DNA of 64,000 nucleotides from a virus (Duplodnaviria > Caudoviricetes), in the IMG/VR virus record IMGVR_UViG_3300011517_000006, positions 24,476-88,475 of that record; one strand, given 5' to 3'. Numbering within the stretch: the first letter of the stretch is position 1; each line of letters begins with the position of its first letter. This document shows positions 7,458 to 15,025 of the stretch, one piece after another. The notes below the pieces were generated by a model. The model ran no database searches. It had not been told where the DNA came from and worked only from the letters and a program-made list of their open reading frames with translations. The translations under genes were made by a program, and so were the position numbers.

Positions 7458-9258
7458 AAACAGGCGGCTCGAACGCGGAAACCTCTGCAGGATCGGCCCC
7501 CAATCCGACCGGCCTCTCCAGCCAGGGGGTCAGGGGGACAGCCATGGCCCGGCTCTGGTGCATGCCGAAGCGCACCGGAGTAGGCAGCGCTCGCGGCGCA
7601 TAGGCGTCGCCGAGGTCTGCCAGGTGCTCCAGCACCCCGCGCCAGTTGGCGTAGTGGGTTCCCGCCAGCGCCCGCGCGAGAGCGGGGTGGTTCGTAGAGA
7701 TCACCAGCCATGGCCCGGGCCTGTCGTGACTGCCGTGACCGTTCTCGACCTTCAGGCCGAAGGTCTTCAACACCTTCTCATGGACGCCCGGGCTCTCCAG
7801 TTGCTCCTGGATCATCTCGCCGATGGTCAGGTGGCGATCCTTGGCGTGCTGGCCCGAGTTGATGGCCCATATCCGCGACAGACAGGCCTGCCCCGGATTC
7901 TGCGCGGCCGAGGTCTCCTCCCGGTTTCGGATCAGCGCCGACCACCTGGCCACCTCCTCCCGTGCCGTCTCGATCGTCAGCGCCTCATCGTGCAGCAGCA
8001 GCCTTCGCCCGGCGGCGAGCGCGGCGACCAGATCGGCTGCCCGGGGCGTCTGCCCGCTTTCCCCCAGCGCGGCCTTCAACAGACCTACGTCCGACCGGTA
8101 TCGCTTGGCCTCGCGCACGGCGCGCGCCAGCAAGCGGGGGGACACCTCCCTTGCCCAGTCTATGGCTTCCTTCAGCGTTTCGTCGGCGCCGCCCTTGGCC
8201 TTGCCCAGCAGCCTCAACCGCACTTCGACCACCCGCGTGGCCATGGCGTCGCCCAGCTGCACCGGCAGGATGCTGGCCAGGTAGGCGGACCCCACGGCGG
8301 TCTGACCCGCAGTCCGTCCGCCCGTGTCGCCCTGACGCCGGGTCGATCCCTCGCCGGTCGACATGCGTCGCAGCACTTCCAACGCCTTCTCGACCGGCCC
8401 CTGCCCGTCCACGCTGGGCTCCGCCTCGTCCAGGTAGAGCGCCCGCGCCTCGCCGGACAAGCCGTTGCGCAGACCCGCCTCCGAGAAGCTGTCCAATAGA
8501 TCCCCGGCGTTCGCGCTGCCTGCCGCCTGCAGCAGGCGCGACAACGTCGTCTTGCCGGCCCCTGCTCCGCCGCTCACGCTGGCGTGCGGCCTGAACGGCG
8601 GAATGGCGCCGAGCAGCGCGGTTCCCTGCCATCCGAACAGCGCGTCCGCCTCGCTGAGGCCATCGGGATCCCGAGGATCCAGCGGGGCGAAGTTCCACAT
8701 GTTCATCAGCTCGCGCAGCTGCTCGCCCTCCGCGATGGTCGCGGGCTTGCCTGGCCTGGGGGCCGGGGGGCGCAGCAGCCACAAGGGACCGCGGTTGCGG
8801 GCGCCGTTCCTCAACGCCTCCGCCACCGATTCCCAATCGTCATCGCCGAAGGGCCAACGGCCGACCGCGTCGCCGGCATGGACGACCGGACCGTCTATGG
8901 TCGACCACACCCCGTACCCACGCTGCGGCCGATCGCTGTCCCACCGGCCGGCCTTGCGGCATCGATCGACGAACCACTGGGCCGCCATGTCGCGCTGCAG
9001 CTTTCCATCGTTGTCGCGCCATTGGGCCAGGAACACCCGCCCCTCCAGGCTGACGAACAGGTCGGTCTTCAGCATGCCGGCGATCTTGGACGCCGGCTCG
9101 CGGCGCAACTCGCCCTCAGGCAGGGCGAAATGCACGTAACCGCCCTCGAACCCCAGCGGGATCACCGGACAGTCCTCGACCTTCGGCTCGATCCAGACGG
9201 CGCCGGACGCCGCCTCGCTGTCGGGATCGGCGTCATCCATCACATAGGAATCGTTCAT
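7399..9258 (-). CDS. Replicative P-loop ATPase/helicase (SF3-like)
   Basis: Walker A GGAGAGKTT, Walker B LYLDEAE; coupled to primase gene. Confidence 0.75.
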   Translation of the reverse strand: MNDSYVMDDADPDSEAASGAVWIEPKVEDCPVIPLGFEGGYVHFALPEGELRREPASKIAGMLKTDLFVSLEGRVFLAQWRDNDGKLQRDMAAQWFVDRCRKAGRWDSDRPQRGYGVWSTIDGPVVHAGDAVGRWPFGDDDWESVAEALRNGARNRGPLWLLRPPAPRPGKPATIAEGEQLRELMNMWNFAPLDPRDPDGLSEADALFGWQGTALLGAIPPFRPHASVSGGAGAGKTTLSRLLQAAGSANAGDLLDSFSEAGLRNGLSGEARALYLDEAEPSVDGQGPVEKALEVLRRMSTGEGSTRRQGDTGGRTAGQTAVGSAYLASILPVQLGDAMATRVVEVRLRLLGKAKGGADETLKEAIDWAREVSPRLLARAVREAKRYRSDVGLLKAALGESGQTPRAADLVAALAAGRRLLLHDEALTIETAREEVARWSALIRNREETSAAQNPGQACLSRIWAINSGQHAKDRHLTIGEMIQEQLESPGVHEKVLKTFGLKVENGHGSHDRPGPWLVISTNHPALARALAGTHYANWRGVLEHLADLGDAYAPRALPTPVRFGMHQSRAMAVPLTPWLERPVGLGADPAEVSAFEPPVWDGSGDRASRNASHGESHE

Positions 9259-10562
9259 GCGGACACGCCCCCGGCTACGCTCGCGGCGGCCTCGGCCGCC
9301 CTGATCACTTCGTTGAAATCCATGCCGATCGGCGGGCGCGAGACACGCACCTGCGTCGAACTTCCGGTGCTCAGGCGGCGGCTCCAGCTGGCCCGGGCCA
9401 AAGCGCCGCTCACGCGCGCCCGCTCGGCGCTGTCACGCACCGCCTCGATCATTCGCTTTTGCTGGCGCCCGCTACGTCCTTTGACCGTCACCGGGCTCAT
9501 GTCGCCGTCGACGGCGATGTCGATCAGCCCCCACGGGTTCTCCGGATCCTCCGGCCAGGTGAAGCCGGGCCGCAAAGGATCCGCCCTGACCCGCCAGATG
9601 TCCCGTGCGCCATCCTTGTCGATGGCCTCGAAGCCGCTCAACCGATCCAGCGATCCCGCCGCAACCGCCCGAACCGGCCGGCTCAACGGCCCAGCCAGCA
9701 TCATGGCCCGCGACGCCGCGTTCTCGACGCCCTCCGCCACCACGAGGGGGCCTGGGGCGTCCGGTCGCGTCAACCACAGCCCGCCCGGCAGCACATAGCC
9801 CTCGATGTCGCCATGCCGGTCCGGCCGGGGCGGCCCCGCCAGTCCGTCGCGACGCGCCAGCACGAAATGGCCCTGCGGCCCCAGCATCCGCTTCGCCGGC
9901 GACCGGTGCGTCTTCCCGCGCCCGTTGGGCGCCAGATAGGTGCAGTGCACGCCGCCGGTCGGACCCAGCTCCGTCATGACCAGAATGACCATCGCCGGCA
10001 GGAACACGCCCCGCTCCGGATGGCCGCTATGCCAGGTTCGCGGATTGAACCCGACCAGAGCCAGCATCCGCGCCGCGACGGGCCCCCGGATGCTCCGCGC
10101 CTCTTCCAGATAGACCTGCGCCAACGACCCGGCCGCGGGCTCACGCTCGCGCCAGATCTTGCGCGCCATTTCCAACCGCCATGCGGCGTCGGCCAGCGCC
10201 TCGGCTTCGGCCTGTTTCGACGCCTGCGCACGCCGTGCGCGCGAAGCCTCGCTTTCGGGCTTCAACTCGCCGCCCATCAAACGGCGGGCCGCGTCGGCCA
10301 TCGTCTCATCGCCGCCTGAGAACAGCCGATGCTCCAGATCGATCACATCGCCGCCGCGCGGGTCGCAGGAATAGCACTGCCAGCGCCGCCCATCGGCGGA
10401 CACGCGGAACGGGGCTAGTTTGCTCTTGGCCCCGCATTCATTCAGGGGGCAGACGCCTCGATAGCCCTTGCCCGTCTTGCGCAGCTTGCACTTGGGCGCC
10501 CGGATCGCGATGTCCTCGCACCGGACCGCCGCACGCGCCCTGTCGAACAGCTCGTCGCTCAT
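9255..10562 (-). CDS. DNA primase (CHC2-type Zn finger + toprim)
   Basis: GVCPLNEC...WQCYSC zinc finger, KRMLG, VVAEGVENA toprim; start MSDELF at 10562. Confidence 0.8.
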   Translation of the reverse strand: MSDELFDRARAAVRCEDIAIRAPKCKLRKTGKGYRGVCPLNECGAKSKLAPFRVSADGRRWQCYSCDPRGGDVIDLEHRLFSGGDETMADAARRLMGGELKPESEASRARRAQASKQAEAEALADAAWRLEMARKIWREREPAAGSLAQVYLEEARSIRGPVAARMLALVGFNPRTWHSGHPERGVFLPAMVILVMTELGPTGGVHCTYLAPNGRGKTHRSPAKRMLGPQGHFVLARRDGLAGPPRPDRHGDIEGYVLPGGLWLTRPDAPGPLVVAEGVENAASRAMMLAGPLSRPVRAVAAGSLDRLSGFEAIDKDGARDIWRVRADPLRPGFTWPEDPENPWGLIDIAVDGDMSPVTVKGRSGRQQKRMIEAVRDSAERARVSGALARASWSRRLSTGSSTQVRVSRPPIGMDFNEVIRAAEAAASVAGGVSA

Positions 10563-11248
10563 GCCGCGATCTCCGCAGCCCTGACAGCGGCCTCGATCCG
10601 GAAGCAGGCGGTGTCGAAATGCTTCGGATCGATCTCGACCCCCGTGAACCTCAGGCCCCGCTTGATCGCCGCCACGCCGGTCGAACCGCTGCCCATGAAG
10701 GGGTCGCACACGTTCGCGGCGTTGATGGTGGCCAACACCTTGTCCATGACCGGATCGGGCTTGACCGTCGGATGATCGACACCGGTGAAACGGCCGCTCT
10801 CGCTCAGGATCCACCGCGCCTTGTCGGTCAGGCTTCCGACCGGATGCGCGCCCGCCAGCCAGGCGTGAACCCAGAACTCCGTGTCCGGCCGATAGTGCTT
10901 GTTCGCCACCGGCAGCGGGTTGGTCTTGTGCCAAGCGCAGACGACGGTCCGATGGTACCGCGCAGCCAGACGCGGCAGCAGCTGGGGCAGCTGATCGTTA
11001 TGACAGAACACCGCCACCGACCGGAACGTGGCCGGCGAACAGATCCGATCGTCGAACCCCTGATCCAGCCCGGCCGCCGCGATCCGATCCATGTTCGGCC
11101 GGGCCTTGCGGAAGCGTCCTGCCCCGCGCGTGTTGAACGCATACGGCGGATCGAACACCCCCGCGTCCTGGGGGCCCAGGGTCCGCACCACCTCGTACCC
11201 GTCGCCCAGGTAAAGCGTCGCCGGCCCGATGACCTCGATCCGGCTCAT
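10559..11248 (-). CDS. DNA N6-adenine/N4-cytosine methyltransferase (beta class)
   Basis: DPPY motif IV before DPFMGSGSTG motif I; HPTVKP; GVEID. Confidence 0.88.
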   Translation of the reverse strand: MSRIEVIGPATLYLGDGYEVVRTLGPQDAGVFDPPYAFNTRGAGRFRKARPNMDRIAAAGLDQGFDDRICSPATFRSVAVFCHNDQLPQLLPRLAARYHRTVVCAWHKTNPLPVANKHYRPDTEFWVHAWLAGAHPVGSLTDKARWILSESGRFTGVDHPTVKPDPVMDKVLATINAANVCDPFMGSGSTGVAAIKRGLRFTGVEIDPKHFDTACFRIEAAVRAAEIAA

Positions 11249-11646
11249 GCCGCCGCCCCGCGCGAGGCTTCGATCTGTCGCCGCGCCTCGGCCTTGTTGG
11301 CCGCTGTCATGAAATAGCCCACGCCCCAGCGGGTGCCGATCTCGATCCCGAACGGCTTCAGCTTCCGCCGGATGTGGCAGACGAAGACGTCCACGATCTT
11401 CATCTCGGGCTCATCCTCGCCCCGGTCGCGGTAAAGCGCCGCCATCGCGGAGTCCTTCGTCAGCAGCTCGCGCTCCAGCAGGACCCCGAACAGTCGGGCC
11501 TGCTGGACGGTCAGCCCCCACTCCAGCGGCGGCAGGACGCACAGGCCCATCGCCTCCTCCAGCTCAACGATGCGGTCTTCCAGGCGCGTGATCGTGGCCT
11601 GCAGCGCGGCCTCGCGCGCAACGGGGTCAACCTGCTCGACGGCCAC
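11245..11646 (-). CDS. Receiver-less OmpR/PhoB winged-helix protein, CtrA-like DNA-binding domain
   Basis: LTKDSAMAALY...DEPEMKIVDVFVCHIRRKL...TRWGVGY compared with recalled CtrA DEPELKIIDVFICKLRKKL...TVWGRGY. Confidence 0.8.
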   Translation of the reverse strand: MAVEQVDPVAREAALQATITRLEDRIVELEEAMGLCVLPPLEWGLTVQQARLFGVLLERELLTKDSAMAALYRDRGEDEPEMKIVDVFVCHIRRKLKPFGIEIGTRWGVGYFMTAANKAEARRQIEASRGAAA

Positions 11647-12544
11647 GACGTTTCCCCTTCCGGTACAGAACGATGGCCAGGGCCTTCCACAGCGGCGTCT
11701 TGTGCGTAGCCGCGAAAACCGCAGCCTCCTGTTCCGCCGCCTCGCCCAGCGCCAGCATCGCGTTCGCCACCCCTTCCGCGTCGATGTCCTCGCGGTATTC
11801 CTCGTCGTGCAGCAGCGTCTCGACCGCCTTGATCTGACCCGCCGTCAACGGCTGCGCCCGCCCCTTCACCAGGGCCTCCAGCACCATGCGCGCCCGCATG
11901 GCGCCGCGCCGGTTGATCAGGGCGCCGATCGCTCGCACCGCGACCGTGTCTCCGATGGCCCAGACCCCGTTGCCTGGCTGGGCGCGCAGCACTCTCACCC
12001 CGGCGCGGGCGCAGACCTGGTCAATTGTCAGGGCGTCCTCGTCCCCGGCCGCCGCCGCCGCGTAGTGCATCTGCATCGGTGTGATGTTCAGCCGGTCGCG
12101 GTTGTGGCCGATGAAGCTGTGGGCCCGCTCTGATCGGCTCGCCGCCTCGACCACCATCACCGGAATGGTGGTCACCATCGGATGGCTGCACGCAGCGATC
12201 GCCGTATGCTGGCCGTCGATCACCTCCAGCCCGCGCTCCGTCCGGGCGCAGACCGGCGGCTTGAACCGACGCCAGTCCCAGCGGGCGCAGATCTTGCGCA
12301 CCAGCTTGATGGACCGCTCCGACAGGTTGCGCTGATACCCTTCATCGATCAGCAGCGTGCCTGGATCGACCCATTCGAACGTCGGCGACGCCGTCTCGGC
12401 CGCCCCGGCCTCGACCCCCGACAGATTGATGGCCTTCACGCCCCTCAGGGCCTTCGACACCGCTGCGGCCGCCAACTCGGCGTGGCATGCGGCCACATAG
12501 CGGTCGTCCGCCTGGCGAAACGCTTGACTGCCCAGCTCCGTCAT
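11627..12544 (-). CDS. ParB/Srx-like domain protein
   Basis: LLIDEGYQRNL...VIDGQHT motif; start MTELGSQ at 12544. Confidence 0.7.
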   Translation of the reverse strand: MTELGSQAFRQADDRYVAACHAELAAAAVSKALRGVKAINLSGVEAGAAETASPTFEWVDPGTLLIDEGYQRNLSERSIKLVRKICARWDWRRFKPPVCARTERGLEVIDGQHTAIAACSHPMVTTIPVMVVEAASRSERAHSFIGHNRDRLNITPMQMHYAAAAAGDEDALTIDQVCARAGVRVLRAQPGNGVWAIGDTVAVRAIGALINRRGAMRARMVLEALVKGRAQPLTAGQIKAVETLLHDEEYREDIDAEGVANAMLALGEAAEQEAAVFAATHKTPLWKALAIVLYRKGKRRGRRAG

Positions 12545-13579: not shown

Positions 13580-14299
13580 TCATGGGCGGGCCCCCGAGGC
13601 TGCCGGGGCGCATTGGACTTCTCCGTCAGTTTCGTGATGAACAGAGCGATGCGTTTCCTCGCCGCCCTGATCGCCGCAGCCTTCACCGGCCTCGCTGCGC
13701 CCGCCTTGGCTGATCCGTGCAAGCGGATTCCCGACCGAGGCCCCATGCCCGCCGAACTGGCGCGCGGGCGCACCTTCTCCGGCCCGGTCGTCTACGTCGG
13801 CGACGGCGACAGCCTGTGTGTCGAGACCCTGCGAGAGCGGGGCGGGAATGGTTGGGTCGAGGTCCGCCTGGCGGACTTCAATGCGCCCGAGCTGAACGAC
13901 CCCGGCGGCCGCGCCGCCCGCGACGCCCTGGTCGCCATTGCCATGAACCGCCGCGTCGTCTGCGTCGCTGGCCGCAAATCCTACGATCGCGTCGTCGCCC
14001 GCTGTACGCTCGGCGGTGTCGGGCTCGGCGAGCGGATGCGGCGGCGGGGCATCGCCGAAGGCGGGCGCTGACGGTACAGCGAAGAACCAGTCTCCGCTGA
14101 ACGGAAGATCGCGCCGCAGCGCCTCATCCCTGATCTTTACCAATACAGGGTAGGACGGGTTGTCTCTCCCGTTTTCGTAACGTGAGATCGAAGGCCGCTG
14201 CACCCCCGCGATTTCGGCGAACTCCTCCTGACGGACGCCAAAGACATGGCGGCGCACCCAGCGGATCGGCGAGTCGGTTATGAGCGAATCACTAGCCAT
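13580..14299 (-). CDS. Cro-like XRE HTH protein; C-terminal tail runs antisense through the nuclease gene
   Basis: IRWVRRHVFGVRQEEFAEIAGVQRPSISRYENG HTH; divergent from cI. Confidence 0.75.
   Translation of the reverse strand: MASDSLITDSPIRWVRRHVFGVRQEEFAEIAGVQRPSISRYENGRDNPSYPVLVKIRDEALRRDLPFSGDWFFAVPSAPAFGDAPPPHPLAEPDTAERTAGDDAIVGFAASDADDAAVHGNGDQGVAGGAAAGVVQLGRIEVRQADLDPTIPAPLSQGLDTQAVAVADVDDRAGEGAPARQFGGHGASVGNPLARISQGGRSEAGEGCGDQGGEETHRSVHHETDGEVQCAPAASGARP
13637..14071 (+). CDS. Secreted thermonuclease (SNase-like) family protein
   Basis: Signal peptide MRFLAALIAAAFTGLAAPALA; VGDGDSL, VRLADFNAPE, YDRVVA motifs. Confidence 0.85.
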   Translation: MNRAMRFLAALIAAAFTGLAAPALADPCKRIPDRGPMPAELARGRTFSGPVVYVGDGDSLCVETLRERGGNGWVEVRLADFNAPELNDPGGRAARDALVAIAMNRRVVCVAGRKSYDRVVARCTLGGVGLGERMRRRGIAEGGR

Positions 14300-14304
14300 G
14301 CGCC

Positions 14305-14372
14305 TTTTGTGCGTGATTCGCACAAAAAGAACAGCTAGGAAGTTCGCCTTATGAACGTGCGCGAGGCGAACT
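14305..14372. promoter_or_regulatory. Prophage 1 operator cluster (GTKCG-N5-CGMAC) in the cro/cI switch
   Basis: Perfect palindrome TTTTGTGCG-TGATT-CGCACAAAA at 14305-14327; related sites at 14342-14356 and 14357-14371. Confidence 0.75.
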
Positions 14373-14392
14373 TATTGGGGATAGGCGGTCTT

Positions 14393-15025
14393 ATGACCGT
14401 TCGACGCCCCACAAATCGCCTCGGCCGGCCCGAACTTCCAGTGGAAGAGGATACGGCTGGAGGGCGCCTGCGCGCACTCAGGAAGCTAGCTCGAGAAGAC
14501 CAACAAGATCTTGCCGATGCTTTGGGCGTAAGCCGCACCCAAGTATCCAAGTACGAGAACGCCGGGCATGTAATGCCCGACTACATTATCGAGCGCGCCG
14601 CCCAACACTACGGGGTCACTCCCGCCTTTCTACGCTACGGAGATACCGACAACCGAATGGCCAAGGTGGTCGGACGCGTCGGCGCAGGCGGCCACGTCGA
14701 GGCCATCGAACAGCCGCCCTGGCGTTACGTCGAGGTCCCGGCGAGTTGGCGCGACGCGATTGCGCTCGAAGTCTCCGGCACCTCTTGTTGGCCGATCTAC
14801 GACGACGGCGACGACATCGTCATCAGAGGCGAGCGACGCTTGATAGCTGAGGAAATCATCGGCCGGATGTGCGTTGTCGAAACAGTCGACGGCCTTGGGC
14901 TAGTTAAGCGTGTGCGGAAGGGAACGCAGGAAGGCCTGTTCACACTTGAAAGCCCCAATGCGCCGCCGATCGAAGATGTGCAGCTCGCTAGCGGTCGCCC
15001 CGTGAAACTCCACGCCCCTCGCTAG
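14393..15025 (+). CDS. CI-like repressor (HTH + S24 peptidase domain)
   Basis: RLRALRK...DLADALGVSRTQVSKYEN HTH; VSGTSCWP serine and LVKRV lysine of S24. Confidence 0.88.
   Translation: MTVRRPTNRLGRPELPVEEDTAGGRLRALRKLAREDQQDLADALGVSRTQVSKYENAGHVMPDYIIERAAQHYGVTPAFLRYGDTDNRMAKVVGRVGAGGHVEAIEQPPWRYVEVPASWRDAIALEVSGTSCWPIYDDGDDIVIRGERRLIAEEIIGRMCVVETVDGLGLVKRVRKGTQEGLFTLESPNAPPIEDVQLASGRPVKLHAPR

Follow-up and report, generated by a model that had tools for sequence, protein, structure and literature searches.

In Alphaproteobacteria, the onset of replication, cell division, motility and pili are under the control of CtrA, and host CtrA binds sites in some phages and is required for some infections (PMC9437464, PMC10589892). 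A phage-encoded relative is also on record: the "CtrA" gp37 of phage RDJLphi1 has been noted in print as being without a response-regulator domain (PMC6363796, PMC5026251), and Hynes et al. 2016 (PMC5026251) reported an open reading frame (ORF) resembling a portion of CtrA between homologues of GafA and rcc01866. Functional tests on a receiver-less phage CtrA homologue appear in neither PMC6363796 nor PMC5026251, and our literature searches found no zipper-type or "CtrA-like" phage protein described beyond the RDJLphi1 remarks, nor a linkage of such a protein to a ParB-like gene. Here we analyze a protein of this kind encoded in a 64,000-nt stretch of DNA (the window, to which all positions refer) that forms part of an 88-kb provirus record (IMGVR_UViG_3300011517_000006) of a Brevundimonas prophage. 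The 133-amino-acid (aa) product of 11245..11646 (minus strand), referred to as zipper-wHTH, joins a winged helix-turn-helix (wHTH) of the CtrA lineage to an N-terminal leucine zipper and a conserved Ala-Ala end. This structural reading is solid; that the protein mimics CtrA or competes with it constitutively is plausible, yet unproven.

A receiver-less winged helix of the CtrA lineage

The gene and the parts of its product, the latter delimited with the help of an AlphaFold2 (AF2) model and its per-residue confidence score (pLDDT, predicted local distance difference test), are located as follows.

11245..11646, stop codon included, minus strand: zipper-wHTH gene, encoding a 133-aa receiver-less CtrA-type winged-helix protein (ORF list, PF00486, substitution-rate ratios, alignment A1)
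11548..11625, minus strand: N-terminal helix, residues 8-33, with leucine-zipper-like heptads (AF2, pLDDT 95-96 over residues 11-30)
11311..11514, minus strand: OmpR/CtrA-type winged helix-turn-helix, residues 45-112 (Trans_reg_C, Foldseek, BLASTP to Rhizobium CtrA)
11350..11400, minus strand: recognition helix alpha3, residues 83-99 (KIVDVFVCHIRRKL...), with the CtrA-specific K-I-x-D-V-F-x-C (AF2 helix 84-99, alignment A1)
11248..11304, minus strand: C-terminal helix, residues 115-132, ending Ala-Ala-Ala (AF2, Ala-Ala counts in the family)

The reading frame opens with GTG, preceded at 7-14 nt by a Shine-Dalgarno-like GGAAGGGG, and this start is backed by a conserved Met column in an alignment of 34 sequences of close family members (A1). 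Ratios of nonsynonymous to synonymous substitution rates (dN/dS) of 0.18-0.39 were obtained against seven relatives at 53-91% identity, and zipper-wHTH is a real gene under purifying selection. Trans_reg_C (PF00486) is its sole Pfam domain, matched at residues 45-112 with 29.7 bits (cut-off 26.2), and PHROG 31800, annotated as a transcriptional regulator, matches at E 5.7e-11. The AF2 model built with the family alignment (pLDDT 89.7, predicted template modeling score 0.78) places helices at residues 8-33, 47-58, 64-72, 84-99 and 115-132 and a hairpin at 104-112, so that the above-threshold Pfam score coincides with the predicted three-helix/beta-hairpin fold of the OmpR/PhoB class. Foldseek searches with this model returned OmpR-type DNA-binding domains only (ArlR, SaeR, AdeR; 74 columns, root-mean-square deviation 1.6-1.8 A). 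Residues 1-44 consist of one helix (8-33) and a Pro-rich linker. Neither a receiver domain nor a phospho-acceptor Asp was found in the protein, Pfam and NCBIfam matching the C-terminal domain alone, and the N-terminal four-stranded beta-sheet typical of response-regulator effector domains is missing from the AF2 model, which shows no strand before residue 61.

The DNA-binding domain is akin to CtrA in particular, not to OmpR regulators at large. Among 18,950 NCBIfam models, the best match of zipper-wHTH is the CtrA equivalog NF045991 (38 bits, E 1.4e-9), followed by PhoB with 18 bits, and CtrA is both the best model for all 34 aligned members and the only one matching all of them. For comparison we used the CtrA genes of four alphaproteobacterial genomes together with a fifth CtrA fragment, and other regulators from the same genomes. 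A hidden Markov model (HMM) of the zipper-wHTH family gave the five true CtrAs 59-62 bits, versus 16-33 bits for those other OmpR regulators that scored. A maximum-likelihood tree of the domains, built on an alignment of only 84 columns that leaves the inner branching unresolved, separates the zipper-wHTH family, related phage proteins and CtrA from 14 other regulators with a 96/98 split. BLASTP against Rhizobium CtrA yielded 44% identity over residues 62-120 (E 7e-12). At the residue level, K83, I84, D86, V87, C90 and R93 of the recognition helix are invariant in A1, found in CtrA and absent from the 14 other OmpR-family regulators; the patterns KI[IV]DVF[IV]C..R.KL and T.WG.GY are likewise common to the family and the five true CtrAs and absent from those 14. 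Across 128 representative clusters, the positions given there as K81, I82, D84, V85, C88, K89, R91, K93, T103 and W105 are 87-100% conserved and identical to CtrA. The copy studied here carries this CtrA-type recognition helix and wing with one exception, His in place of Lys at residue 91.

The sequence-only reading had named a CtrA-like DNA-binding domain, and these four lines of evidence (NCBIfam, family HMM, tree and residue signature) favor CtrA over a generic OmpR origin. Zipper-wHTH contains every block quoted in that reading (DEPEMKIVDVFVCHIRRKL, TRWGVGY, EAALQATITRLEDRIVELEEAMG) as well as the terminal AAA, and the CtrA strings it gave for comparison, DEPELKIIDVFICKLRKKL and TVWGRGY, occur literally in the true CtrA genes of the four alphaproteobacterial genomes. 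It had also named the outcome that would speak against it, best hits to unrelated OmpR-family regulators; CtrA is instead the top match. Judged by its sequence, the DNA-binding domain thus belongs to the CtrA lineage. The protein itself is not a CtrA, being without receiver and without N-terminal effector beta-sheet.

A partial match of this kind could also be left by a captured host ctrA gene that has decayed into a functionless fragment: the match is confined to the final 55 positions of the CtrA model (167-221 of 224), with 38 bits against a cut-off of 350. The dN/dS values, at least 148 full-length clusters of one architecture, the conservation of the added zipper and C-terminal helix, the confident AF2 model and the retained synteny speak against decay, and we regard this explanation as effectively refuted by the conservation data.

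Where a receiver and effector beta-sheet would be expected, zipper-wHTH carries a leucine zipper of 3.5 heptads. Leucines occupy the d positions (L15, L22, L29) and I19, I26 and M33 the a positions, with 4-3-4-3-4 spacing, and in the family alignment the hydrophobic fraction is 0.76-1.0 exactly at 15/19/22/26/29/33 and at most 0.32 at the helix positions between them. Asn at the central a position is a classic mark of an in-register parallel dimeric zipper; it is found in 66% of the 128 representatives, with Ile in this copy. The heptad a/d pattern, Leu at d and, in most of the family, Asn at the central a together identify the helix as a leucine zipper. The earlier suggestion that a heptad helix had replaced the receiver is thereby borne out, the a/d pattern being strictly conserved across the family and no receiver having been found. 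A homodimer prediction scored 0.37 against a mark of 0.42, with controls at 0.00, and was not counted either way. The zipper would be expected to hold the protein in a constitutive parallel dimer, and because of such constitutive dimerization DNA binding would presumably need no phosphorylation by the CckA-ChpT relay.

Like the zipper pattern, the Ala-Ala end is a family trait that is conserved and recurs over a set of at least 128 protein clusters. It ends 26 of 34 close members and the proteins of 58 of the 128 representative clusters, compared with ~2.4% (~3) predicted by the Ala content of the region. Ahead of it, the tails of zipper-wHTH relatives differ in length and sequence. All five true CtrAs sampled end in Ala and one of them in Ala-Ala. 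The likeness to the CtrA terminus pointed out in the sequence-only reading is hence real; of a CtrA-like ClpXP degron, the end is present and conserved, whereas the receiver determinants are absent. Regulated, cell-cycle-dependent proteolysis of Caulobacter CtrA also requires determinants in the receiver domain. Because these are missing, the Ala-Ala end is predicted to be at most a simple ClpXP-type tag; as such it would make zipper-wHTH a short-lived substrate and its action transient.

A profile search of 1.84 billion representatives recovered at least 148 clusters (50% identity) at E <= 1e-30, nearly all of 113-145 aa and matching end to end, and relatives are present on 181 IMG/VR contigs. 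Among the named sources, which with one exception are Alphaproteobacteria, are Brevundimonas, Rhizobium, Shinella, Stappia and a Bradyrhizobiaceae metagenome-assembled genome (MAG). Two labels are odd: Actinomadura yumaensis for a protein with 77% identity, and an uncultured Paracoccus MAG for locus L002, whose module genes are 87-95% identical at the protein level. Both look to be Brevundimonas-type prophage DNA that was mis-binned or entered as contamination. Besides the center genome, the family was found in 0 of 400 Pseudomonadota and 0 of 400 Alphaproteobacteria species genomes, with the top 10 candidates per genome scored, which makes it rare rather than absent. As it was not found in these 800 randomly sampled genomes, zipper-wHTH is a sporadic prophage gene.

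A ParB-like partner in an early operon

The genes around zipper-wHTH on which the argument draws are the following.

11627..12544, minus strand: ParB-like gene, 305 aa from the ATG at 12544; its 3' end overlaps the zipper-wHTH start by 20 nt
10559..11248, minus strand: N6/N4 DNA methyltransferase (Pfam N6_N4_Mtase, E 1.1e-11; PHROG 67)
9255..10559, minus strand: DnaG-type zinc-ribbon/DUF7146 primase, probable 434-aa form (Pfam Zn_ribbon_DnaG and DUF7146; a 434-aa orthologue in L125)
14080..14323, minus strand: Cro-like HTH_3 gene, head of the leftward early operon, 3' end uncertain (Pfam HTH_3 at residues 29-64 of ORF 13580..14323, E 2.8e-9)
14351..15022, plus strand: CI-like repressor with HTH and Peptidase_S24 (Pfam HTH_31/HTH_3 and Peptidase_S24), divergent from the zipper-wHTH operon; the layout is repeated in L126

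The strongest new fact about zipper-wHTH is its near-constant linkage to the ParB-like gene. We counted gene order in 80 related viral contig loci (L045-L124) and five alphaproteobacterial genome loci: the ParB-like gene directly precedes zipper-wHTH, in the same orientation, in 67-69 of the former and in all five of the latter, and the adjacency holds down to 32-45% identity. The partner matches PHROG 1033 (ParB-like, E 1.9e-15), and its AF2 model (pLDDT 91.8) finds ParB, Noc and KorB in Foldseek, with E down to 2e-5. A PDB profile search with an alignment of the ParB-like protein returned nothing significant. The protein carries a VIDGQHT motif and has no Pfam match in this copy, a relative giving a weak match to DUF6551. 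This ParB-fold partner is itself an uncharacterized family, almost always paired with zipper-wHTH, and the two proteins may act together.

A second, tandem zipper-wHTH paralogue lies after the ParB-like gene and ahead of the CtrA-type copy in 15 of the 80 viral loci. Its recognition helix (..VVESHVSKLR..) is not of the CtrA type and its wing reads GERxxGY; it also occurs in L024, L025, L027 (Shinella), L003, L006 and L126:7613-8008; heterodimers between the zipper paralogues are conceivable. In one contig, one of the only three exact TTAA-N7-TTAA boxes in the related loci (L106:5109-5123) stands directly upstream of the start of the ParB-like gene, perhaps by chance, perhaps because host CtrA controls the module of this phage.

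On the minus strand, the operon runs from the cro-like HTH_3 gene through two small ORFs, the ParB-like gene, zipper-wHTH, the methyltransferase, the primase and a phrog_21086 protein to the terminase. Its genes are tightly packed, with ATGA-type and 20-nt overlaps; the methyltransferase start overlaps the zipper-wHTH stop in an ATGA, and zipper-wHTH is translationally coupled both to the ParB-like gene upstream and to the methyltransferase downstream. The methyltransferase is a neighbor in only 11 of the 80 loci, all close relatives, and the primase is likewise confined to close relatives. The same layout recurs in two independent relatives, where a CI/Cro switch precedes the module and genes for a NusG-like protein and the terminase follow it. 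Given this Cro-side position and its recurrence in both relatives, zipper-wHTH is probably an early lytic product. The metatranscriptome data yielded only short contigs, located at the methylase and ParB-like genes and not at zipper-wHTH, and contigs are unable to show expression. The cro-like gene is separated from the remainder of the early operon by an ORF on the opposite strand (13613-14071, plus strand, 152 aa) with high GC content at third codon positions, a signal-peptide-like N-terminal hydrophobic segment and a weak SNase-like match (E 0.09); it may be a moron.

Target DNA and candidate functions

A scan of both prophages for CtrA boxes, proposed in the sequence-only reading, came back empty: exact TTAA-N7-TTAA occurs 0 times in the window and in the whole 88-kb provirus record, with one site at one mismatch versus 0.62 expected. 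Nor are boxes enriched in 1.04 Mb of related loci, where exact copies number 3 versus 1.0 expected and one-mismatch copies 40 versus 44. The half-site TTAACCAT was not enriched in these scans, and no spacing stood out among TTAA-Nk-TTAA pairs with spacings of 0-25. Neither a search of the module's surroundings for iterons and for repeats in direct or inverted orientation, nor one for dyads occurring both on the cro side and upstream of the integrase, revealed anything above chance. TTAA itself is under-represented in the 1.04 Mb (L045-L124, L003-L006, G000), with 567 occurrences observed and ~871 expected under a first-order Markov model. Since the phage has no CtrA boxes, any CtrA-box targets of zipper-wHTH would sit on the host chromosome, and if the protein acts on the phage, its specificity differs from that of CtrA.

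A 15-bp palindrome, GCGCACGSCGTGCGC, is scattered across prophage 1 in 8 exact and 6 near copies, many of them within genes.

Exact copies of GCGCACGSCGTGCGC: 4845, 10226, 15640, 20224
Copies with 1-2 mismatches: 884, 2721, 8113, 16718, 17480
Further copies: 5 more upstream of the window in G000

The palindrome bears no resemblance to the CtrA half-site; either the ParB-like protein or zipper-wHTH could be its reader.

We propose that the DNA-binding domain of CtrA gave rise to zipper-wHTH, a DNA-binding protein that the prophage makes early in lytic growth. That it binds host CtrA boxes as an early mimic or competitor of CtrA is a substantial possibility, short of probable. Its most likely targets would then be CtrA-type sites on the host chromosome (origin, CtrA regulon), occupied soon after induction, because the CtrA contact surface is constant across phages of several alphaproteobacterial orders and the phage lacks boxes of its own. 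This constancy favors host targets, as the predicted contact surface is kept identical to CtrA across orders whereas phage operators normally drift. With one exception, moreover, the named hosts belong to Alphaproteobacteria, the class that has CtrA, and since TTAA is palindromic, a zipper dimer with two-fold symmetry would suit the box no less than a head-to-tail dimer. In its fullest form the proposal describes a widespread takeover device of temperate alphaproteobacterial phages, in which a phosphorylation-independent, zipper-dimerized CtrA head occupies host CtrA boxes at lytic onset, silences the origin and rewires the cell-cycle, pilus and flagellum regulon, while a ClpXP tag limits its lifetime and the ParB-like partner assists; as a complete scheme this is rather unlikely.

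Several points weigh against a role as host mimic. The receiver determinants of CtrA cell-cycle proteolysis are missing. The absence of CtrA boxes excludes phage targets only and is no pointer to host ones: with a chance expectation of only ~0.01 in this GC-rich DNA, it is uninformative on host targets. Residue 91, which we take from PhoB-DNA structures to be equivalent to a base-contacting Arg of PhoB, is Lys in CtrA and in 87% of the family and His here, and by this analogy the DNA specificity of this copy may have shifted. A PDB sequence search returned no CtrA DNA-binding domain for contact mapping, the only match being CarR (E 0.004). The near-obligate ParB-like pairing and the tandem paralogue are more typical of a phage-internal DNA-handling module, and the coupling to the ParB-like gene together with the Cro-side position, neither of them remarked on in the sequence-only reading, favors a phage-internal role at least as much as a host mimic.

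Such a role is nearly as likely as host mimicry and competes with it. Zipper-wHTH would then be a regulator or DNA-handling factor paired with the ParB-like protein, its zipper dimer acting on phage sites unrelated to CtrA boxes in the control of early or middle transcription, origin use or partition. The near-constant, frame-overlapping pairing with a protein predicted to fold like ParB, Noc and KorB is what such a factor would lead one to expect, as are a module that, within the Cro-side operon, always comes before the genes for replication, the tandem paralogue with its different recognition helix and the His91 of this copy; GCGCACGSCGTGCGC could serve either ParB-like protein, the partner or another. 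It fits less well that CtrA-type contact residues are 87-100% fixed although phage operators usually diverge fast, that no shared dyad, iteron or spacing-specific TTAA pair was found near the module, and that GCGCACGSCGTGCGC is unlike the CtrA half-site. A decision factor in the manner of CII, an unstable early activator at repeats near the repressor and integrase promoters that promotes lysogeny and whose level a host protease sets through the Ala-Ala tail, appears improbable. Its place between cro and the replication genes recalls lambda cII, and the conserved Ala-Ala end, the predicted oligomerizing activator-type wHTH and a partly conserved acidic DEPE loop would suit it; yet direct-repeat dyads common to the cro-side region and the DNA ahead of the integrase do not exceed chance, the ParB-like partner is left unexplained, and CtrA-type contact residues kept in unrelated phages are not expected of a protein reading phage-specific promoters. 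If instead the host-mimic proposal is true, an always-on phage CtrA head would be a reverse strategy, in which the virus imposes a cell-cycle state rather than reading it. The family is compact (~130 aa) and abundant, as its 181 IMG/VR contigs and at least 148 clusters show, and its exchange of a receiver for a zipper shows a route to a signal-independent OmpR-type domain, which bears on transcription-factor evolution and engineering.

Relation to known systems

Among gene pairs with a ParB-fold member, KorA-KorB of plasmid RK2 (PDB 8qa8/8qa9) offers the analogy for a phage-internal function: there, too, a ParB-fold protein is encoded alongside a small DNA-binding dimer, with KorA latching KorB, a clamp of the ParB family, and the partner described here is KorB-like by fold. 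The helix-turn-helix repressor KorA, however, is not an OmpR-type winged helix and has no sequence relation to zipper-wHTH. The partner differs from ParB proteins in its N-terminal domain, where VIDGQHT stands in place of their GERRxRA box, a motif familiar from the ParB literature. Lambda CII is similar as an early-operon oligomeric activator on direct repeats that undergoes proteolysis through its C-terminus, but its fold is unrelated (a classic HTH tetramer degraded by FtsH), and no CII-type sites were found here.

With CtrA itself (NF045991), zipper-wHTH shares the OmpR-type winged helix, DEPExKI[IV]DVF[IV]C and the wing W, the terminal Ala, often Ala-Ala, and the same side of the tree; it differs in being phage-encoded, in having no receiver, phospho-Asp or effector beta-sheet, and in its added zipper and extra C-terminal helix. 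Closest among phage proteins are those of Rhodobacterales phages (RDJLphi1 gp37, RDJL3, RcIroh gp60, vB_PmaS-R3), which are likewise receiver-less winged helices of the CtrA lineage, fall on the CtrA side of the tree and are 40-47% identical to zipper-wHTH over the domain, with tblastn matches in RDJL, Rc and Paracoccus phages. They have no zipper, and their winged helix lies beside or is fused with DUF6456/GafA-type domains rather than next to a ParB-like gene. It is fused to DUF6456 in RDJL3 and RcIroh gp60 and stands beside the DUF6456 protein gp38, a reported GafA homologue, in RDJLphi1. The Rhodobacterales CtrA-type/DUF6456 loci are these.

L010:3677-4516
L011:3638-4252
L009:2701-3633

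DUF6456 was seen only in these Rhodobacterales versions and not with zipper-wHTH, for which no association with GafA/DUF6456 and rcc01866 was found; that the upstream gene might be a GafA homologue as in RDJLphi1 was considered and rejected, BLASTP showing no similarity to gp38 or neighboring genes. DUF6456 is thus a receiver replacement different from the zipper. Receiver-less phage homologues of CtrA were already known; the zipper-wHTH-Ala-Ala family and its ParB-like linkage did not turn up in the literature searched.

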